From an uncultured Clostridiaceae bacterium (GTDB lineage: Bacteria; Bacillota; Clostridia; Clostridiales; Clostridiaceae), in assembly GCA_963780135.1 (NCBI GenBank), contig CAWAAR010000003.1, positions 3,709,701 to 3,733,700 on the forward strand: DNA of 24,000 nt, read 5' to 3'. This document shows, piece after piece, positions 1,771 through 13,337 of the stretch (within the stretch, counting starts at the first letter, position 1; each line of letters begins with the position of its first letter). The notes below the pieces were generated by a model. That model had not been told where the DNA came from. It worked only from the letters and a program-made list of their open reading frames with translations, and made no database searches. Position numbers and translations under genes: made by a program.

Positions 1771-2817
1771 TTATTTATGAGAGTTTGCTAAACCATTCAG
1801 CTCTTCTGTCAGTTCTGTAACTTCCTGTAAATTTGCAGTAACTTCTTGAATTGCAGCCGATTGCTGCTCTGTGGTTTCTAGTGTGGACTTAGACGATTCC
1901 ATAGTTTTATCCACCGATTCATGTATCTTACCTGTAAGTTCTGATATTTTTAAAGCTGTTTGCTTAGAGTTTTGAGATAACTTACCTATTTCTTTTGCAA
2001 CAACACCAAAACCCCTTCCTGCTTCTCCTGCTCTAGCTGCTTCTATGGATGCATTTAATCCAAGCATTTTAGTTTGGTCCGCTATGCTTTTTATTGAATC
2101 AAGTATTGAGTTAATTTCCGTAGATATATCTTTTACATTAACTATCTCTTGACTTAAAATATGTTGATTATTTGTAACATTAACTGATGATGCTGATAGT
2201 TCTTCCATAGTTGCTGAAATTTGATTAAAATTATCAGAAAGCACTCGAGACATGCTTTTTATTTTTAATTCTTCATATCCTGTTTTCGACAATGCATTGG
2301 CTATAATATACAGTACCTCTGCAGCTGCTTTCACGCTTTTTTCAGTAGTAACTTTTACTTTATTTACTACTTCCACATATCCATCTTCATTAACACCTAT
2401 TTCTTTTGCCGCTTCTCTATATTTTGATTCATTAGGTTTAGAAGTCAATAATTGTCCTCCTAAAATTGTTCCAATTTGCTTACCTTCTATTAATATAGGT
2501 GCAGCAAAATCAATTAGTCCTGCATGACAAGTGTAAACACATGGTCTTCCTGTTTTTGCAGCTTCTTCTCCGCCTTTTCTGTGAGATTCAGCACATCTAT
2601 CATAACCTACTTTAGTAGACTGTGTGAACTTCATACAAAAATCTGTATATGAACTAGGTTTAGTTACTGGATTTCCATTAACATCTACTGTTATACTAGC
2701 AATATCCATACTTTCTGAAAAATTGTCTTGAAATTTTTGAAGCAGTTCAATATCAATAACATCTTTTATTTCAAGTAAATTCAAATCAAAATCATTACCA
2801 TTAATTATTTTTAACAT
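1771..2817 (-). CDS. Soluble chemoreceptor: PocR sensory domain fused to a short MCP signalling hairpin
   Basis: PocR signature: [66 protein letters not shown] highly conserved tip: [30 protein letters not shown]. No TM segment and no HAMP. The ORF track starts at TTG 2832, but GGAGAAG lies 8 nt before ATG 2817 (MLKIINGND...), so 2817 is preferred. Confidence 0.85.
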
Positions 2818-2852
2818 AATAAACTTCTCCAATACAATAAAATTATTTAACC

Positions 2853-4550
2853 TTAGAGTTTAAATTTATTTAACTCTTTTGTTAATTGCTCTGCTGAACT
2901 AGTTAAACTTTGTGCAGTTTCAGATACAGAACCTGCAGAATTTTTCATCTCATGTGATGAAGCTGCAATTTCCTCTGCTGCTGCTGAATTTTCTTCTGAT
3001 ACAGCACTAGTATTCTCTATTTTCGATGCTACTGGCACCATATCACTATCCAATTTACTAATACCTACTGAAACCTTTTGTATATCAGGTATTATAATCT
3101 CTACAGCATCTATAATAGATTTAAATGAGTCTACAGCTGTATTTATTGTTGTTACTTCATTATTTAACTGTTTATTAACATCACCTGAGGTTTTTGCTAA
3201 ATTAGATGTCTCAGATGACACATTATTTAATAATCCACTAATTGTGTCAGAAGAATTTTTACTTTGATCTGCTAGCTTTCGGATTTCATCAGCTACCACA
3301 GAAAAGCCTCTTCCTGATTCTCCTGCCCTAGCAGCCTCAATTGCTGCATTAAGTGCAAGCAAATTTGTCTGTTCTGATATACTATTTATTAAGCTTGTTA
3401 TCTCATTAGCTTGATTTATGCTTATTTGAAGCTGTTTTATTCTATTTATTATTCCTTCAAAAGAATTGCTAATATTATTTAAGGATTCAACTAATCTTTC
3501 TAACTGCTTATTGCTTGTATTTGCCATACTGCCAATATTTCCTGTTACACTATTAGCTTCACCAATTAAAGTAGCAAACTCTTTTAGGGAAAAACCAAAT
3601 TCCTTTATAGAATCATTTACAAACATAAGTTCACCTGCCTGTTCAGTAGAACCATTAGCTACTTCTTCAATTGCTCCTGCAACCTCATCAGAGGTTGAAA
3701 ACATTTCTTCTGAAAGTGCATATAAACTCGATGCTCCTTGATCAATAGTGCAAGCAGTAGTTGTTATATTTCCTAATAAAGCTGCTATAGAATTTCTCAT
3801 ACTAAATAGCTGTTTATTCATATTGCCGAATTCTGTATTTGAAGAAGTATCTATTTCTGATGTAAAATCTCCTGAAGCTATTGTCTTTATAGTATTTGTC
3901 ATCTCATTTAAAAGCAATTTTAAATTAGAAACAAACAATACAGATATAAATAATAATAATAAAGTAGAAATAATTGCAACTATTATAAATGCTCTGTTAG
4001 AATAAATGGACTCTTTTTTATATTCTATGGTTTCAGCTGCTATAAGAGAGTTTTTATTTGCTATAGCACTTTTTATCCCTTCAGTAATGGAAGTCCCTTT
4101 CTTTGTAATTTGATCAGTCTGATTCTTAGTTATTTCAAGTCCTGATTTTTTTCTATTCTTCTCCTCATTATATATACTCATATAACTTGTATAATTATTT
4201 TCTATCTGTTTTACTTTTGCTGATTCATTATTATCTAATCCTATAGCTTTTATCTTTGTAAAACAGTCTTTCATTCTAGCATCTTCATTTTCAACATCCT
4301 TAATTTGTTCCTCTGAATAAGGTCTGTCAATAAATCTAGTCATGTATATCCTTAGTTCATTAAAATTTCCATTTATATCCCCATATCTCTCTATTACAGC
4401 AACATCACTAGAACTTAATTTAGTATAGTATTTATTAAGTTTTGAAGACGTTGTAAAACTAATAACTCCTATAAAGCTCAATGCTATAAATGATATAAGT
4501 ATCAAAGCCATAGTTCCCTGAATTAATTTTATTTTCTTTCTCAATTTCAT
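2853..4550 (-). CDS. Transmembrane methyl-accepting chemotaxis protein (two TM, ~150-aa extracytoplasmic helical sensor, HAMP, MCP signalling domain)
   Basis: TM1 is [21 protein letters not shown] and TM2 is [22 protein letters not shown]. The MCP tip is [33 protein letters not shown]. The ORF track starts at 4571, but GAAGGGGA lies 8 nt before the ATG at 4550 (MKLRKKIKL...), so 4550 is preferred. The stop is 35 nt upstream of the PocR-MCP start, so the two are probably co-transcribed. Confidence 0.9.
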
Positions 4551-6094: not shown

Positions 6095-7222
6095 TTAGTC
6101 AGTAATATTAGGTAAAGTGAAATATACTGTTGCTCCTTCATTTAATTTACCCTCAATCCAAGTTTTTCCTCCATGCTTTTGAACTATTTTACGAACAGCA
6201 GCAAGTCCTATTCCACTCCCCTCAAATTCATCTGAGGAATGTAAACGCTCAAATATTCGAAATAATTTTCCTGAGAACTCCATATCAATACCCACACCAT
6301 TATCCTTTACATAGAAAACATACTCACTAACACCTCTTTTGCATCCAGCAATTATAAGTGCTTTTTCTCTATTTCCAGTAAATTTTATGGCATTGGAAAT
6401 TATATTATAAATTACTTGTTTTATCATAATTACATCTGCAAAAACAAGAGGCATTCCTGTTTCAAATTCAAATTCAATGGCTCTTTTTGAATAAATTGAT
6501 TTAAGTTCTTTAAAAGCCGAAGTGAACATTTCACTTATATTTACACTTTCTTTGCATATCTCTAGACGATTAGTTGTTGAATATTGTAGTAATTTTCCAA
6601 CCATAGTAATCATATCTCTACATATATCTTTTATATTAGAAACCATTTCACTAGCATCTTTATCTAGTAATGTCCTATAATCTTCAAGAATTATTTTGCT
6701 GTATCCTTGAATAGCCCTTAAGGGTGATTTTAAATCATGAGACACAGTATATGAAAAAGATTCAAGTTCATTAACAGCAGCTTCAAGCTCTAATTTTTTT
6801 TCTTCAAGAATTTCATTGCGCTGTGCTAACTCATACTGAGCAAGCTTCAACGACAAATGAGTATGTACCCTAGCTTTAACTTCAAGAATTTCAAAAGGTT
6901 TAGTTATATAGTCAACAGCACCTAATTCAAAACATTTTGTTTTACTGATTATATCTGTCATGGCAGTTAAAAAAATTATAGGTATGTCTTTTGCTAATTT
7001 ATTTTCTTTGATTCTCTTACATACTTCATATCCATCCATAATAGGCATCATAATATCTAATAAAATTATATCTGGAATCTCTATTTCTAAACTTTCTAAT
7101 GCAGATTTTCCATCCGTTGCAACTGAAATTTCATAATCATCACCAAAAGCTTCTACAAGAATATCAATATTTTCTTCTGTATCATCAACAATCAGCACTG
7201 TACACTCTGAAAGTTCTTTCAT
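6095..7222 (-). CDS. REC-histidine kinase (N-terminal receiver, coiled coil, HisKA, HATPase_c)
   Basis: REC: [39 protein letters not shown]. HisKA H-box: [20 protein letters not shown]. HATPase: [33 protein letters not shown]. The ATG at 7222 overlaps the upstream stop (TAATG), indicating translational coupling. Confidence 0.9.
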   Translation of the reverse strand: [375 protein letters not shown]

Positions 7223-9519
7223 TATATTTCCTCCCCTTTAAGATTATTCATTAATACTTCAAGTATATCAAGTGCTTCCTTAAATTTATATTTCAAAACA
7301 AACCTCTCAATTTCTGCAGCATTTTTTTGGATTTCTACCGGCCATACTAATTTTCTATATTCTTTCATAACTTCAGCACATTTTTTAGGTTTTCGAGTTT
7401 TCAAATAAGGTTTAAGCTCATTCATAATTTTTAATATTTCATTTTTGGATGAAACATTACCAGTTACCATAGCCACCTGCTCATCTTCTGGAAGTACACT
7501 TTCAAGAGCTTTTATCATTTTACTAAGCATAACACTTGTCTCTCTCAACATGGTGTTAAGTATATCAGAAGAAATCCTTTTTTTAATGGCCTCTTCTAAA
7601 CTAGCTGCCTTTTCCTGAATAACCACAGCACCAATAGTTCCAGATACCCCCTTTAAAGTGTGCGCAATACGTTCTGCAGTAAGAAAGTCCCCCTCTGAAA
7701 TCACTTTTTCAATTTGCATAATTGCATCCTTTTGTCCTAACACATATTTTTTCAATAAATTTATATATGATTTTTTCTTTCCAAGTACCCTTCTTAACCC
7801 AAGTGATGTATCAAGTCCAGGAATGCCTACTACAAAGTCATCTGAACATGTATTTACTGAAGCTTTAAATTTTACTTTTTCAGTACTTACTTTTCTAAAT
7901 GGAATCCATTTTAAAAGTATTGAAAACAACTGATTAGGATCTATAGGTTTAGATATATAATCATTCATACCTGCTTGTATACACTTATTCTGATCATTGG
8001 TCATTACATTAGCAGTCATTGCAATAATAGGTAATGCTAATCTCTTTATATTTCTTCTAATTTCTTTTGTTGCTGTTACACCATCCATTACTGGCATCTG
8101 CATGTCCATAAGTACAATATCGTATTTATTCTCCCTAACTTTATCCACTGCAATTTTTCCATTTTTAGCAAAATCTATTGAAAACTCGCCTTCTTGTAAT
8201 AGGTCAACTGCAACCTGCACATTTAGTTCATTATCTTCCACTAATAATATCCGGGCTCCACTGATTACTGTAAGAGATTCATTGTTTTTTAAAGGTTCAT
8301 CCATCTTTTGTGTTGCTTTACCAATACCAAGTTTTGCAGTAAACCAAAAAGTACTTCCTATTCCAAGTTCAGTTTCAACTCCAACCTGGCCTTCCATTAG
8401 AGTTGCCAATTCTTTAGAAATAGCAAGCCCCAGACCTGTACCTCCATACTTTCTAGTTATAGAAGTATCGGCCTGTTGAAAGGATTGAAAAAGTTCACCT
8501 TTTTGTTCTTCAGTCATACCAAGTCCTGTATCCTGAACCTCAAACTTTATTACACACTGATCAAGTAATTCTTCTTCTTTGCGAATTCTTACAACTATTT
8601 GTCCTTTTTCAGTGAATTTAACTGCATTGCTTACATAATTAATAAGAATTTGTCCTACTCTTAAGGGATCACCGCATAAATTCTTTGGTAATTCAGTATC
8701 TAAATCAAAGATTAGTTGAAGACCCTTTGAAGCACATTTGTCACCAATAAGATTTTCTAGATTATCTAGTACCTCAGCCAGTTTAAAACTGGTTTTCTCA
8801 ATTTTAAGCTTTCCTGCTTCGATTTTAGAAAAGTCCAATATATCATTTATTACACCTAACAAATGCTGATTGGATTGGGATATCTTGTTAATATAATCCC
8901 TTTGTTTGGTATTTAGATCTGTTTTTTCAATTAAATAAGTCATTCCCATAATAGCATTTATTGGAGTTCGAATTTCATGACTCATATTTGCTAAAAAATC
9001 CGACTTCGTTTTAGCAGCCTCCTCAGCACGTTCCTTAGCATCCCTTAATTCTTCTGCTTGTACTAGCAATTTATCATTCTTTTTTTTAAGCTCAACCATA
9101 AGTTCTTGTCTTGATGGTATGGATAGTACTTTTTTTAACTCTTCTATTTCTTCTTTACTAATAGAAAATTTCATATCTTTTATGTAAGAAAATGCTTCTA
9201 TAATTAATGAATTATCCTCTAATTTCCTTATAAAGTAATTATCAAAAATTTCATTACCAAATTCAAGATTCTCTTTAGTTACTATTTTCGATAATTTAAA
9301 TAATAAAGCTTTTTTTTCATATATATCTGTTATAAAAATTGAAATCAGTATATCTTTATTATTGCAATAACATCTACGACATATTTCCGATATAGCAACT
9401 TCAATTCTTGTGGTTTTTATATCAGTATACCCAAAGCTTGTAACTAGTCCTCGTATTTTCTTTCTAGCTTCAATTATAGAATCGATGTTCATTATTTTGA
9501 GAATGCCTAATTCAATCAT
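7222..9519 (-). CDS. Soluble hybrid sensor histidine kinase: unassigned ~135-aa N-terminal domain, coiled coil, HisKA, HATPase_c, REC, Hpt
   Basis: H-box FLANMSHEIRTPINAI (His181). HATPase: VSNAVKFT, QDTGLGM, GGTGLGLAISKELATLMEG. REC: ILLVEDNELN, DIVLMDMQMPVMDG, AMTANV, ISKPI. Hpt: AHTLKGVSGTIGA. No hydrophobic TM stretch is visible. AAGAGGT lies 8 nt before ATG 9519, and the start is 22 nt after the rsbX-like stop. Confidence 0.9.
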   Translation of the reverse strand: MIELGILKIMNIDSIIEARKKIRGLVTSFGYTDIKTTRIEVAISEICRRCYCNNKDILISIFITDIYEKKALLFKLSKIVTKENLEFGNEIFDNYFIRKLEDNSLIIEAFSYIKDMKFSISKEEIEELKKVLSIPSRQELMVELKKKNDKLLVQAEELRDAKERAEEAAKTKSDFLANMSHEIRTPINAIMGMTYLIEKTDLNTKQRDYINKISQSNQHLLGVINDILDFSKIEAGKLKIEKTSFKLAEVLDNLENLIGDKCASKGLQLIFDLDTELPKNLCGDPLRVGQILINYVSNAVKFTEKGQIVVRIRKEEELLDQCVIKFEVQDTGLGMTEEQKGELFQSFQQADTSITRKYGGTGLGLAISKELATLMEGQVGVETELGIGSTFWFTAKLGIGKATQKMDEPLKNNESLTVISGARILLVEDNELNVQVAVDLLQEGEFSIDFAKNGKIAVDKVRENKYDIVLMDMQMPVMDGVTATKEIRRNIKRLALPIIAMTANVMTNDQNKCIQAGMNDYISKPIDPNQLFSILLKWIPFRKVSTEKVKFKASVNTCSDDFVVGIPGLDTSLGLRRVLGKKKSYINLLKKYVLGQKDAIMQIEKVISEGDFLTAERIAHTLKGVSGTIGAVVIQEKAASLEEAIKKRISSDILNTMLRETSVMLSKMIKALESVLPEDEQVAMVTGNVSSKNEILKIMNELKPYLKTRKPKKCAEVMKEYRKLVWPVEIQKNAAEIERFVLKYKFKEALDILEVLMNNLKGEEI

Positions 9520-9541: not shown

Positions 9542-10141
9542 TCATATTAAATATTTTAGCACAATGCAAGATTCATCATCATTTTTTTTACTAAATTTTT
9601 CTAATATTCCTTGTGCAATATTTTCAGCATTTTCTTTTAGTAATCCTCTACATTCAAAGGATTCAAAATGTTCTTTAATACCATCTGAATGCAAAAGTAA
9701 AATTTCTCCTCCATGAAGTTTTAAACTGTGTTTGTGAGGATTGGTTATTCTATAGCCAATGACACCACCTTTTGATACAAACCTAATAGGCTTTGGCCAC
9801 ATAATTCTAACAGTAATATTTCCTATTCCAACATAACTGAGTTCACCAGTTACCATATCTAAATTACATATTGCTGCAACAGCTCCTCTGGTTCCCTTTA
9901 AATGTTCATGCAGACCATTCATAATGTCCACTATGTCCTTACAATAATTATTCTCCAAGTATGTTTTTGCATATAGTGCTACTTTTCTTGCTTCTGATCC
10001 ATGTCCAAGTATATCAACTAAAGCCAAAAAACAATTATTTCCATACTTTTTAATAATACCTATATCACCACACTCTGATTCGTCTCCAAGTAATGCTTTG
10101 TAAACCATGCCTAACTCAATATCTGACATTATCTCTTCCAT
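9542..10141 (-). CDS. rsbX: RsbX-like PP2C/SpoIIE-family serine phosphatase
   Basis: About 195-199 aa, a single PP2C-like domain (GDIGIIKKYGNNCFLALVDILGHGSEA, GAVAAICNLD, LLLHSDGIKE). It sits fourth in an R-S-T-X gene order. The start is ambiguous: ATG 10141 overlaps rsbT by 13 nt, while ATG 10129 forms a TAATG overlap with the rsbT stop. Confidence 0.75.
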   Translation of the reverse strand: MEEIMSDIELGMVYKALLGDESECGDIGIIKKYGNNCFLALVDILGHGSEARKVALYAKTYLENNYCKDIVDIMNGLHEHLKGTRGAVAAICNLDMVTGELSYVGIGNITVRIMWPKPIRFVSKGGVIGYRITNPHKHSLKLHGGEILLLHSDGIKEHFESFECRGLLKENAENIAQGILEKFSKKNDDESCIVLKYLI

Positions 10142-10590
10142 TTACGTGCAAGCACACGCGTTCCCTTTCCTAATATAGCTTCAATATAAAATTCGTCCAT
10201 TATCCTTTTCACACTTGGCAGTCCTAAGCCTAGGCTATGAGGTAAAGAACTGTACTGTTCTTGCATGGCAAGCTCAATATCCATTATTCCAGGACCATTA
10301 TCCTTAGCAAATATTTCAATACCTACACGGCCATCATTTATATTTCTTATAAAACTAATAGTTATTTCACCTTTTTTTGCATATCGAATTATATTTGTTG
10401 ATAATTCAGATGCTGCAGTAGCAATCATAACCTCATCCGTACGCATAAAACCAGCTTTTACAGCCATCTGCCTTGTAACAAATATGATATGCCCATTATT
10501 ATGATCTTCTGCAAGCTTAACAAGAACCATATCCAATAAGCTCACAGTTTTGCCTGCAAAAATAGTAAAGCCATCTTCTATTTCATCCAT
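10129..10590 (-). CDS. rsbT: RsbT-like GHKL serine/threonine protein kinase (anti-sigma-regulatory-factor type)
   Basis: 153 aa. N-box-like ATAASELSTNIIRYA, G1 DNGPGI, G2 GLGLPSVKRIMDEF. It has no HisKA or dimerisation His domain. AGAGGTG lies 7 nt before ATG 10590. It immediately follows two STAS genes. Confidence 0.8.
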   Translation of the reverse strand: MDEIEDGFTIFAGKTVSLLDMVLVKLAEDHNNGHIIFVTRQMAVKAGFMRTDEVMIATAASELSTNIIRYAKKGEITISFIRNINDGRVGIEIFAKDNGPGIMDIELAMQEQYSSLPHSLGLGLPSVKRIMDEFYIEAILGKGTRVLARKWKR

Positions 10591-10616: not shown

Positions 10617-10985
10617 TTAAGTCTTTGATACTAGTTTAAATCCCTGTTCTAAGTTAATAGCAGCTTTTATACCACTAACATCTACATTTAAATCTAATAG
10701 TGCTGACACAACTCCGGGTTTAAGACCAATCCATACAACATTAACTCCCATAAGTGAAATTGCTTTTGAAGCTTTTTGTAAAAACTTAAATGTATAAGAA
10801 TCCATTCCTTTTAACATACTTAAATCAAGTATAGCACTAACTATTGAAACGTTATTAGCTTTTGTTATTATTCTGCTAATACCTAGTTCTATCTCTTTAT
10901 CAGTAATTTCACTTGGCAGTGTTACAATAAGACACCCTTCTACTACTGTCACTGATGTTTTAAAATCATAATCAAACTCTATCAT
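10617..10985 (-). CDS. rsbS: RsbS-like single-domain STAS protein
   Basis: 122 aa, STAS only. The conserved phosphorylatable serine context is ILDLSMLKGMDSYTFKFL (Ser63), comparable to the RsbS Ser in the D-S-F/Y motif. AAGGAAG RBS overlaps the rsbR stop. Confidence 0.8.
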   Translation of the reverse strand: MIEFDYDFKTSVTVVEGCLIVTLPSEITDKEIELGISRIITKANNVSIVSAILDLSMLKGMDSYTFKFLQKASKAISLMGVNVVWIGLKPGVVSALLDLNVDVSGIKAAINLEQGFKLVSKT

Positions 10986-10995
10986 AGCATCTTCC

Positions 10996-11808
10996 TTATA
11001 ATTCTTTTTTATGTTTCACTTCTAAATTAAGTATTGAAAAAGCTTCAGCCAAGGCATCGCTTAAAGTAGCCTTTGTTTTTATGCTTTCCATGTCAATTCC
11101 TAGTTCAATAATAGTTTGTGCCACTGCTGGAGATATCCCAGAAATTATACATTCACAGCCCATAAGTTTTGTAGCCTTCGTTATTTTAATAAGATGATTT
11201 GCTACAGCAGTATCTACAGCAGCAACCCCATGAATATCCATTATTATAACTTTAGAATATGTTTCCATTATTTTGTTTAGCATACTTTCCATCATATGCT
11301 GTGCTCTCATAGAATCAACCACACCTACAACCGGAAGAACCAGAACTCCTTCCCATAATTCTATAGTCGGTGTTGACATCTCACGTATGGTTTGGCTTTG
11401 TTCCCTTACTCTTTCTTCATATTGAACTCTTTCCATTATATCAATGATAAACTCAAGACCTCCAATTATATTATCATTTTCATCTTTTAAAGGAACAGAA
11501 AAATATTCCATAGGCATTTTCAAGTTATTAATTGTTACTTCATTTCGTGCAGAACACATTTTTCCACTTTCAATAGCTTTAATCATACAACACTGCTCCG
11601 TATTACAATGCAATGAATTAAAAAGGTCACAACACCTTTTGCCTAAAATGTCCTCCTTGCTTTTCTTTACAGTTTTTTGTCCCGCCTTATTTATATAAGT
11701 TACTCTTAATTCTTTATCCACTGCCATTACTGTAGTTGGTATTTGATCAAGAATCTGCATTTTTATCGTACTATTTGCTTCCTCAAAATTTTCAGTGATA
11801 TTATCCAT
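10996..11808 (-). CDS. rsbR: RsbR-like stressosome sensor: Cys-rich PAS domain plus C-terminal STAS
   Basis: 270 aa. The linker/STAS block TPTIELWEGVLVLPVVGVVDSMRAQ...IIMDIHGVAAVDTAVANHL...ISGISPAVAQTIIELG is typical of RsbR paralogues. Thr200 (in VDT) and Thr232 (in AQT) sit in the motif contexts of the two RsbT-target threonines of B. subtilis RsbRA. The N-terminal PAS (LDQIPTTVMAVDKELRVTYINKAG...) carries CC-x6-HC-x4-CC-x10-C. AGGAGGAAAAG precedes ATG 11808. Confidence 0.8.
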   Translation of the reverse strand: MDNITENFEEANSTIKMQILDQIPTTVMAVDKELRVTYINKAGQKTVKKSKEDILGKRCCDLFNSLHCNTEQCCMIKAIESGKMCSARNEVTINNLKMPMEYFSVPLKDENDNIIGGLEFIIDIMERVQYEERVREQSQTIREMSTPTIELWEGVLVLPVVGVVDSMRAQHMMESMLNKIMETYSKVIIMDIHGVAAVDTAVANHLIKITKATKLMGCECIISGISPAVAQTIIELGIDMESIKTKATLSDALAEAFSILNLEVKHKKEL

Positions 11809-12198: not shown

Positions 12199-12218
12199 AA
12201 AGGGAGGTGCAAAATAAC

Positions 12219-13337
12219 ATGAAAAAACTTTCTGAATGTATGGTGCTTATTGTTGATGATACGGAAGCTAATGTGGATATCCTTGTAGAAGCCTTTGGTG
12301 ACGATTATGAAATATCCGTTGCTATGGATGGAGAATCTGCTCTTGAAAATATAGGAATGGAATTGCCTGACATAATTTTATTGGATATTATGATGCCTGA
12401 TATGGATGGGTATGAACTATGCCGCCGTATCAAAGAAAATAAAGCTACTGCAGAAATTCCTATTATATTTTTAACAGCCATGACAGATATAGTAAGCAAA
12501 ACAAAAGGCTTTGAACTTGGTGCAGTGGATTATATAATTAAACCTTTTGAAATTCTTGAGGTAAAAGCTAGGGTACATACCCACCTGTCCTTGAGACTTG
12601 CACAATATGAGTTATCAAAGCAAAATGAACTTCTTGAGATAAAAGTAATAGAAAGAACAAAGGAGCTTAATCTTACCCAAGAAGCAACTATTGAAGCAAT
12701 GGCTTGTCTAGCAGAATATCGTGATCCTGAAACTGGAGGTCATATAAAACGCACAAAAAATTATATAAAAATATTGGCAGAGGAACTAAAAAAAACTTCA
12801 AAGTTCAAGGATATTTTGCTTAACGAAACCATAGAACTTTTGTACAAATCCGCACCTCTCCATGATATCGGCAAAATAGGTATAAGAGATGATATTTTGC
12901 TTAAAAATGACAAATTAACCCCTGAAGAATTTGAAGAAATGAAAAAACATACACTTTTAGGATATTACTCACTGTTAAAAGCTTCTTCAAAACTTGGTAA
13001 TAATTCTTTTTTAAAATGTGCAATGGAACTTACGCGCTCTCATCAAGAAAAATGGGATGGAACAGGTTATCCAGATGGTCTAAGGGGAGAAGATATTCCT
13101 TTACCTGGAAGACTTATGGCAGTGTCAGATGTTTATGATGCACTTATCAGTAAACGAGTCTACAAACCTGCTTTTTCTCATAAAAAAGCTGTTCAAATAA
13201 TTCTTGAAGGTAGGGGCCATCACTTTGATCCTGAGATTGTTGATGCATTCATGAATATTCATGAAGAATTCCGAAAAATTGCATATAAATATGCTGATTG
13301 TGAGGAAGAACGTACTGCCCTGAATAATTCAATTTAG
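12219..13337 (+). CDS. Response regulator with an HD-GYP c-di-GMP phosphodiesterase output (RpfG-like, REC + HD-GYP)
   Basis: REC: VLIVDDTEANVDIL, IILLDIMMPDMDG, FLTAMTD, IIKPF. HD-GYP: GGHIKRTKNY, APLHDIGKIGI, HTLLGY, SHQEKWDGTGYPDGL, RLMAVSDVYDALISKRVYK. The ORF track begins at GTG 12207, which lies inside the RBS AGGGAGG. ATG 12219 sits 11 nt after that RBS and is preferred. Confidence 0.9.
   Translation: MKKLSECMVLIVDDTEANVDILVEAFGDDYEISVAMDGESALENIGMELPDIILLDIMMPDMDGYELCRRIKENKATAEIPIIFLTAMTDIVSKTKGFELGAVDYIIKPFEILEVKARVHTHLSLRLAQYELSKQNELLEIKVIERTKELNLTQEATIEAMACLAEYRDPETGGHIKRTKNYIKILAEELKKTSKFKDILLNETIELLYKSAPLHDIGKIGIRDDILLKNDKLTPEEFEEMKKHTLLGYYSLLKASSKLGNNSFLKCAMELTRSHQEKWDGTGYPDGLRGEDIPLPGRLMAVSDVYDALISKRVYKPAFSHKKAVQIILEGRGHHFDPEIVDAFMNIHEEFRKIAYKYADCEEERTALNNSI

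Follow-up and report, generated by a model that had tools for sequence, protein, structure and literature searches.

Stressosomes occur in many bacterial phyla and in some archaea. Canonical RsbT is kinase and partner-switching protein in one. RsbW, SpoIIAB and UsfX are ATP-binding, homodimeric, free-standing kinases that phosphorylate STAS proteins and sequester sigma factors. To our knowledge, how the complex signals to its output is clear only where that output carries the RsbU_N domain, as in RsbU of Bacillus, MtG of Moorella and a small number of proteobacterial kinases. RsbU_N (PF08673) is an RsbT-binding input domain found on RsbU, MtG and some proteobacterial kinases, and its outputs comprise PP2C phosphatases, GGDEF proteins and histidine kinases (PMC12143880, PMC9237108). 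RsbU_N is missing from most outputs encoded downstream of rsbRSTX, VvD1 of Vibrio vulnificus among them, and how these are coupled is described as an open question (PMC9237108, PMC10014275). Here we describe the N-terminal domain of a hybrid histidine kinase encoded behind rsbR, rsbS, rsbT and an rsbX-type gene in an uncultured Clostridiaceae bacterium (assembly GCA_963780135.1, contig CAWAAR010000003.1, positions 3,709,701 to 3,733,700); this whole stretch of 24,000 nucleotides (nt) is referred to as the window. Residues 1 to about 147 of the kinase, termed the N-domain or pseudo-RsbT, are very probably a kinase-dead paralogue of RsbT and a link to the stressosome.

Identity of the N-terminal domain

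The hybrid kinase is specified by a minus-strand open reading frame (ORF) and comprises 765 amino acids (aa), organized as follows.

9519..7222, minus strand: hybrid histidine kinase, 765 aa (ORF list, Pfam)
9175..9519, minus strand: pseudo-RsbT core, residues 1-115 (hhalign against RsbT, AlphaFold2, Foldseek, conservation)
9007..9174, minus strand: connector, residues 116-171 (AlphaFold2 helices, linker register, comparison of family members P0039 and P0167)
8812..9006, minus strand: HisKA domain (dimerization and histidine phosphotransfer domain, DHp), residues 172-236, with phospho-accepting His181 (Pfam PF00512, E 1.4e-21)
8329..8673, minus strand: HATPase_c catalytic domain, residues 283-397 (Pfam PF02518, E 5.3e-25)
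7918..8250, minus strand: receiver (REC) domain, residues 424-534 (Pfam PF00072, Response_reg, E 1e-28)
7549..7725, minus strand: histidine phosphotransfer (Hpt) domain, residues 599-657 (Pfam PF01627, E 1.9e-08)

Profile-profile comparison by hhalign, using 38 N-domains and 12 RsbTs, aligned residues 2-115 of the N-domain with residues 19-153 of RsbT, nearly the whole of that protein, over 114 columns at 97.1% probability and E 4.9e-11. The relationship was also recovered in both directions with hidden Markov models (HMMs). The N-domain HMM matched neighbouring RsbT ORFs in a scan of related loci and, in a 400-genome sample of the class to which a Legionella metagenome-assembled genome (MAG) belongs, free-standing RsbT-like kinases at E 1e-7 to 6e-11; the RsbT HMM matched the N-terminal region in 71 of 156 family proteins, together with fragments from loci L022, L032 and L033 that hold the N-domain alone. 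Other comparisons returned little: the Pfam model HATPase_c_2 (PF13581) matched none of 38 N-domain members even at E ≤ 1, and PDB searches with the single sequence or a small profile gave chance-level matches only (FMDV VP1, HGF), apart from the catalytic domain of YycG, which was a weak but sensibly aligned match at E 0.46; comparing sequence alone with solved structures is too insensitive in this case.

The AlphaFold2 model of residues 1-150, built on a 16-sequence alignment, was confident, with a mean predicted local distance difference test score (pLDDT) of 86.7 and a predicted TM-score (pTM) of 0.81. It places β1 at residues 2-9, α1 at 12-28, α2 at 33-50, strands at 57-66 and 69-79, a helix at 86-90 and strands at 94-99 and 105-112, with a short helix (122-133) and a further one (137-149) lying beyond the core. 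In Foldseek searches against the PDB, the 17 best matches were all RsbW, SpoIIAB or UsfX, each with probability 1.00, at E values from 1e-5 to 2e-3 and target TM-scores of 0.55-0.81. RsbW entries 6m36 and 6m37 scored highest of these 17 (target TM-score 0.71-0.81, E down to 1.1e-5), the others including SpoIIAB (1th8, 1tid, 1til, 1l0o) and UsfX (8ih8, 8jzt); histidine kinase catalytic domains and SiaB came next in the list. Model and structural matches agree on a Bergerat α/β sandwich with the element order of RsbT, RsbW and SpoIIAB (β1-α1-α2-β-β...β-β).

The ATP site of this fold has been lost. Every RsbT examined has Asn at the N-box column, within SELxxN; in the N-domain this residue (position 49) is replaced, the motif reading SEICRR in the window and SEICR-x in the family. 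In the profile alignment with RsbT, the G1 motif (DxGPGI), the ATP lid and the G2 motif (GLGLP) are all lost in a gap of about 20 residues that falls exactly over D97-G-P-G-I ... L-G-L-G-L-P of RsbT, and neither a G1 (DxGxG) nor a G2 (GxGL) motif was present in the N-domain alignments. E45, corresponding to the catalytic-base Glu, is kept despite the absent ATP site. With the N-box Asn gone and G1, lid and G2 deleted, the N-domain is a pseudokinase, predicted from these sequence features to have no kinase activity, and since it lacks the catalytic hallmarks of RsbT, RsbW and SpoIIAB it should not be filed as a kinase.

A sequence-only reading of this DNA had set residues 1-135 apart as an unassigned domain of a soluble kinase, lacking recognizable PAS, GAF or HAMP domains, and had suggested a degenerate, non-catalytic GHKL-like or novel fold with one stretch resembling the N-box helix of RsbT. 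The residues are exactly as quoted there, and His181, which it named as the H-box histidine, sits in a SHEIRTP motif. No transmembrane helix is present, the highest 19-residue Kyte-Doolittle mean being only 1.06, which indicates that the kinase is soluble. Residues 1-135 gave nothing significant in Pfam and nothing in NCBIfam, and no PAS-, GAF- or HAMP-type fold appeared in the Foldseek output. The resemblance to the N-box helix proved to be true homology, supported by hhalign, reciprocal HMM matches and the fold, and the missing Asn and G-boxes that it reported are accounted for by the replacement at position 49 and the deletion described above. A degenerate, non-catalytic GHKL-like domain is likewise what hhalign, AlphaFold2 and Foldseek returned, the predicted fold being of the RsbW/SpoIIAB type. 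The domain boundary lies nearer residue 147 than 135; the cassette takes in helix 122-133 and the start of a signalling helix.

Other identities were discarded in the course of this comparison. An RsbU_N-like fold was ruled out by the α/β sandwich of the model and by the absence of any Pfam match to PF08673 at E ≤ 1 in N-domain members, and a PAS or GAF sensor by the lack of a Pfam profile match and of such a fold among the Foldseek matches. A mis-called start codon was ruled out by the retention of MIELG as the extreme N-terminus across the family.

Among described proteins, RsbT (of B. subtilis and of the window at 10129-10590) is the closest sequence relative of the pseudo-domain; it has about the same size and the same secondary-structure order, and both are tied to rsbR-rsbS. 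Residue numbering also matches through residue 49 (R19, R23, R38, S44, E45, R48) if the B. subtilis RsbT sequence is as we take it to be. Unlike RsbT, the pseudo-domain is without N-box Asn, G1, lid and G2, and it is not a free protein but the front part of an output enzyme, attached by a coiled coil. RsbW, SpoIIAB and UsfX (6m36, 6m37, 1th8, 1l0o, 8ih8) are the best structural matches, and the conserved residues of the N-domain fall at their STAS-contact positions; the pseudo-domain differs from them in lacking an ATP site, and no sigma factor is encoded at the window locus. With RsbU_N it shares the N-terminal place before a coiled-coil linker, a gene position after rsbRST and modular reuse on PP2C, GGDEF and histidine kinase outputs. 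The folds, however, are unrelated, RsbU_N being a helical dimerization bundle and the pseudo-domain an α/β GHKL sandwich, and RsbT binding has been demonstrated for RsbU_N.

Family, linker and gene context

A word-indexed search with the N-domain returned five close relatives only, and the profile of these was then run against 1.84 billion representative proteins. In this search 199 proteins matched at E ≤ 1e-3, of which 47 also passed E ≤ 1e-10; these are about 200 representatives at 50% identity, with protein lengths from about 350 to 1350 aa. The domain match begins at residues 1-3 in 138 of 150 listed relatives. Among 71 full-length members, 63 carry HisKA + HATPase_c (REC and Hpt being frequent in these and PAS present in about 17), followed by adenylate/guanylate cyclase (3), SpoIIE-type PP2C (2), GGDEF (2) and HD (1) outputs. 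In a Methanobacteriaceae MAG (L020, 9992-11080), the kinase core after pseudo-RsbT is of the HHRVKNNL type (HisKA_2/HWE-like) and not of the HisKA type, a further output class that HisKA-type query sequences miss. The family is apparently undescribed in the libraries and literature searched, without a Pfam or NCBIfam model.

The family consensus reads MIELGxIxIxxxxSIVEARxKIRxLAxxLGFxxIxATRLETAxSEICR...FFD...AFKxLPD...SRxELxxELxxKN. R19, K21, R38, S44, F92, D93, E139 and L140 are the most conserved positions, and E45 is also conserved; overall identity across phyla is 25-35%, yet the surface-type residues R19, K21, R38 and E45 are strongly kept. The connector (116-171) contains a conserved FxP(T/S)xxFI, helix 122-133 and an SRxEL..KN signalling helix that runs into the DHp domain. 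Comparison of P0039 (PP2C + HATPase_c_2) with P0167 (hybrid histidine kinase) revealed 80% identity over residues 1-147 and no relationship beyond. This confinement of the likeness shows that the domain moves as a unit: pseudo-RsbT is a portable N-terminal input cassette ending near residue 147.

A heptad-keeping coiled-coil signalling helix joins the cassette to the output enzyme behind it, whatever its kind. Of 98 kinase-type members, 68 have the phospho-accepting His 26, 33, 40, 47, 54 or 75 residues away from L140, spacings that belong to a single heptad register; chance would give about 14. The 98 sequences are related to each other, so that this count describes a pattern and is not a statistical test. 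The window kinase has a distance of 40 from L140 to His181. One-register linkers of this kind are a known pattern where a sensor domain meets the DHp through a continuous coiled coil, and the register kept in the pseudo-RsbT family matches the coiled-coil linker mechanism shown for RsbT and RsbU (PMC12143880). Family member P0014 (552 aa) has two tandem pseudo-RsbT domains, at residues 1-129 and 131-263, ahead of its output region, an arrangement that would fit pseudo-RsbT acting as a dimer.

In the window, the hybrid kinase is gene 5 of a tightly packed operon in the order rsbR, rsbS, rsbT, rsbX-type PP2C, hybrid kinase and REC-kinase. The genes other than the kinase itself, and the REC-HD-GYP gene considered below, are as follows.

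10996..11808, minus strand: rsbR, 270 aa, PAS + STAS (Pfam PAS_4 + STAS, STAS alignment)
10617..10985, minus strand: rsbS, 122 aa, STAS only (Pfam STAS, E 4.8e-07)
10129..10590, minus strand: rsbT, 153 aa (Pfam HATPase_c + HATPase_c_2, alignment, residue table)
9542..10141, minus strand: rsbX-type PP2C phosphatase, 199 aa (Pfam SpoIIE, E 5.2e-10, ORF list)
6095..7222, minus strand: REC-HisKA-HATPase_c protein (REC-kinase), 375 aa (ORF list, Pfam)
12207-13337: REC-HD-GYP protein

As judged from alignment and Pfam, the window RsbT is a complete GHKL Ser/Thr kinase that retains N-box Asn66, G1 and G2. From the end of the rsbX-type gene to the start codon of the hybrid kinase there are 22 nt; rsbT and rsbX overlap by 13 nt (10129-10141), and the stop codon of the hybrid kinase shares bases with the start codon of the REC-kinase (7222). 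Both overlaps fit translational coupling along the operon. The REC-kinase at 6095-7222 is likely the next relay step after the hybrid kinase.

To place this arrangement in context, loci were taken from class-level genome samples, from species-representative genomes (with one subfamily alignment), from metagenomes (with a second subfamily alignment) and from two PP2C-type members. Having been gathered with two subfamily alignments, they cluster by subfamily. We counted 28 distinct loci with upstream DNA (the window, L002, L003, L011-L018, L020, L021, L022-L034, L043-L046, which represent one gene, and L047); L019 begins at the domain gene itself, is uninformative and stands outside this number. 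In all 28, rsbT or rsbX, or a contig-end fragment of one of them, lies directly upstream, and rsbS and rsbR precede it wherever the contig extends far enough. The rsbRST synteny holds across subfamilies, phyla and output types, the loci including those of Clostridia, Nitrospira, Desulfobacterales, Atribacteria, Dehalococcoidia, the Legionella MAG, a Patiriisocius (Flavobacteriaceae) MAG, archaeal MAGs (Methanomicrobia, Methanobacteriaceae and Woesearchaeota) and metagenomes. Full-length matches are rare, with 3 in 399 genomes of the window's class (the window's own genome included) and 2 in 400 of a second class sampled. Four genomes searched whole contain one full domain copy each, and the two extra matches in them (E about 1e-4) are the adjacent rsbT genes.

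Genomic context therefore ties the domain to the stressosome. The sequence-only reading had taken its position, equivalent to that of RsbU_N, as the point where the stressosome signal enters the phosphorelay. The positional parallel holds, given the N-terminal location, the heptad-register linker and the fusion of some relatives to PP2C as in RsbU, and the proposed entry point is well supported by the 28 loci, in which the domain co-occurs with rsbRST(X) and was never found apart from rsbT. A ligand-sensor fold or a wide occurrence without RsbT, which that reading had named as grounds for abandoning the idea, was not encountered. From its N-terminal place in enzymes encoded right after rsbR-rsbS-rsbT, the domain probably connects outputs to those stressosomes in which an RsbU-type adaptor is missing.

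Several loci show further peculiarities. In an Atribacteria MAG (L017), two overlapping ORFs (2024-2311 and 2196-3404) divide the beginning of the N-domain gene between them, with a duplicated ...NRSKKMIELGKIPIK... segment, probably through an assembly error or a frameshift. Upstream of rsbR, beside the rsbRSTX and pseudo-RsbT-PP2C-kinase genes, Patiriisocius-type loci L043-L045 encode a 112-aa single-domain STAS protein (RsbV-like) and an SBP_bac_3-PAS-SpoIIE-HATPase_c_2 protein of about 1590 aa, neighbours that suggest a second partner-switching layer. Downstream of the pseudo-RsbT-PP2C gene, L046 (4080-8546) encodes a TCAD9/tyrosine-phosphatase-like protein and a group II intron reverse transcriptase (RVT_1 + GIIM). 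Many RsbS proteins of L011, L013, L014, L017, L018, L022-L031 and L034 have a length of 150-175 aa and carry a long Asp/Glu-rich tail at the end; the window RsbS (122 aa) has no such tail, and acidic tails, though shorter, are found in modules lacking the pseudo-RsbT domain as well. In other stressosome-like modules of the second class sampled, two RsbT-like GHKL kinases lie back to back after rsbR-rsbS (L037 1477-2303, L038 1465-2276, L041 857-1686), or a kinase-PP2C fusion follows rsbT (L036, L042); the fused pseudo-RsbT may have originated from a tandem-kinase or kinase-PP2C module of this sort.

Candidate binding surface and competing explanations

The near-invariant residues R19, R38, S44 and E45 of the N-domain align with positions 23, 42, 48 and 49 of what we take to be the RsbW sequence. 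In RsbV-RsbW crystal structures, RsbW residues R23, D42, K44/S48, E49 and Y118 hydrogen-bond RsbV, E49 contacts the phospho-acceptor Ser56 of RsbV, and RsbW dimerizes through β1 and α1 (PMC7340262). The corresponding surface is distributed unequally between the pseudo-domain and the RsbT encoded with it. In B. subtilis RsbT numbering, cognate RsbTs, that is, those upstream of a pseudo-RsbT output, lack Arg19 and Arg/Lys38 in 23 of 23 cases, with positions 19 and 21 varying, and the window RsbT has Ile36 and Met55 at the equivalents of Arg19 and Arg38. RsbT-like kinases of other modules have Arg19 in 10 of 11 and Arg/Lys38 in 9 of 11, and the pseudo-domain, unlike the cognate RsbT, retains both. 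On the partner side, STAS alignment shows that RsbR has an invariant Asp, within GxxDSxR, at the position of RsbV Asp23; the RsbS residue at this position varies both with and without a pseudo-RsbT domain, in an alignment of ambiguous register.

The simplest reading of a loss of R19 and R38 from cognate RsbT, combined with their retention in the pseudo-domain, is a division of labour. Drawing on these residue patterns, we tentatively propose, at a confidence approaching an even call, that pseudo-RsbT binds the STAS domains of RsbR and RsbS and that the job of RsbT has been split between a free kinase and a fused switch. Free RsbT would keep the kinase role alone, its switching surface having been left to drift, and the fused pseudo-RsbT would keep the switching role through its α1/α2 surface (R19, R38, S44, E45). 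Pseudo-RsbT would bind unphosphorylated RsbR/RsbS STAS domains and be let go once RsbT phosphorylates them, with RsbX resetting the system. Its bound or free state would travel down the coiled coil and set autophosphorylation of His181, from where the signal would be relayed through the REC and Hpt domains to the REC-kinase (6095-7222) and the REC-HD-GYP protein (12207-13337). A broader version, which we hold somewhat more guardedly, is that outputs of several kinds (histidine kinases, PP2Cs, cyclases and GGDEFs) may be parked on the RsbR/RsbS STAS surface and freed or switched by phosphorylation.

A number of points weigh against docking on STAS domains. The ATP lid is deleted in the N-domain, and in RsbW the lid adds to STAS binding through Tyr118. 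Cognate RsbTs must bind and phosphorylate RsbS without Arg19 and Arg38, so neither residue is strictly needed for STAS binding, and if pseudo-RsbT and RsbT compete for one STAS site, they would have to exchange on it dynamically. Packing against the conserved acidic helix (122-133) of the domain itself might be the real role of the conserved basic residues. Only a few related subfamilies supplied the loci, and the counts of 28 of 28 and 23 of 23 do not represent independent events. Furthermore, R19, R23 and N24, described as the partner-switching surface of B. subtilis RsbT, are reported to bind RsbU (PMC12143880, citing Hardwick 2007). The recent stressosome cryo-electron microscopy papers considered give no residue-level RsbT contacts and so do not discriminate between the partners. 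A similar described module is rsbRSTX-VvD1-VvD2 of Vibrio vulnificus, in which the gene for a hybrid sensor kinase directly follows rsbRSTX, another two-component gene comes next and a sigma-B cascade is absent (PMC9237108, PMC10014275), its RsbR carrying a globin sensor where the window RsbR has a PAS domain. With a view to VvD1, the LuxQ_Vibrio model was run on the 400 genomes of the Legionella MAG's class and had no match, and none of ten family representatives of about 1050 aa that were looked up is named Vibrio.

A less likely but viable alternative, the one favoured by the sequence-only reading, is that released RsbT docks on pseudo-RsbT, for example as a kinase/pseudokinase heterodimer through β1/α1, stiffening or re-registering the coiled coil and thereby switching the kinase. 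The domain does sit as RsbU_N does (N-terminal, with a coiled-coil linker, after rsbRST(X) and in some cases fused to PP2C), and RsbU is activated by RsbT binding to its N-domain and linker (PMC12143880). RsbW dimerizes through β1/α1 (PMC7340262); MIELG, with which β1 begins, hardly varies in the family and forms the extreme N-terminus of most members, and the α1 surface of cognate RsbT, being unlike that of other RsbTs, could mean retuning to a new partner. Yet cognate RsbT is variable at positions 19 and 21 and shows no fixed residues there that would complement R19 and K21, which are invariant in the domain; a dimeric kinase holds its N-domains together, and these would be expected to homodimerize through the same β1/α1 face; and the conserved residues fall on the STAS-contact positions of RsbW, not on its dimer face. 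Fold and conserved residues suit a domain that mimics RsbT and binds the RsbR/RsbS STAS domains no less than one on which RsbT docks. Heinz et al. 2022 detected no interaction between VvRsbT and VvD1 (PMC9237108), a result that speaks for STAS docking as well as against docking of RsbT, but bears on this case only insofar as VvD1 carries the domain.

It appears improbable that pseudo-RsbT is a structural or dimerizing cap, the decayed remnant of a second RsbT/RsbW-like kinase gene that fused to its downstream neighbour, now merely stabilizing the N-terminal end of the coiled coil or auto-inhibiting the enzyme without a specific stressosome partner, the signal reaching the kinase otherwise, for instance through RsbT phosphorylating it or through input via the receiver domain. 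Plausible precursors of such a remnant exist in the tandem RsbT-like kinases and kinase-PP2C fusions (L036-L038, L041, L042), packing on the acidic helix could account for the conserved basic residues, and a transient phosphorylation by RsbT has been proposed by Heinz et al. for the kinase encoded downstream (PMC9237108). A mere cap is, however, difficult to reconcile with the strong retention of R19, K21, R38 and E45 across phyla despite the low overall identity, the coupling to rsbRST in every informative locus, the reuse of the cassette on at least five output types and a linker that keeps one heptad register; nor is there a conspicuous conserved Ser/Thr in a setting typical of kinase substrates. 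The prospect that pseudo-RsbT senses a small molecule or nucleotide, as the kinase's own stressosome-independent input, is very remote: nucleotide binding is a property of GHKL folds, and ligand-binding domains are frequent at the N-terminus of soluble kinases, but here the nucleotide pocket has gone along with its N-box Asn, G1, lid and G2, no PAS, GAF or other sensor fold was matched, and the strict rsbRST synteny would be left unexplained.

Implications for stressosome outputs

The cassette is an RsbT-derived pseudokinase input module, specific to stressosome outputs in the loci examined and previously unannotated; no description of an RsbT-like or pseudokinase domain in stressosome outputs was found in the literature searched. 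With a family model, genome annotation could recognize stressosome outputs whose present label says no more than 'response regulator' or 'hybrid sensor kinase'. The loss of Arg19 and Arg38 from cognate RsbT, complementary to their presence in the pseudo-domain, suggests a simple mutational test. If outputs are indeed parked on STAS surfaces, neither a diffusible RsbT messenger nor an RsbU_N adaptor would be needed, and the two jobs of RsbT would be split over two polypeptides in a widespread but rare class of stressosomes. The pseudo-RsbT domain is a concrete candidate for the missing link in one class of stressosome outputs without RsbU_N and, if this proves true, it would be a bacterial pseudokinase reused as a signalling adaptor.

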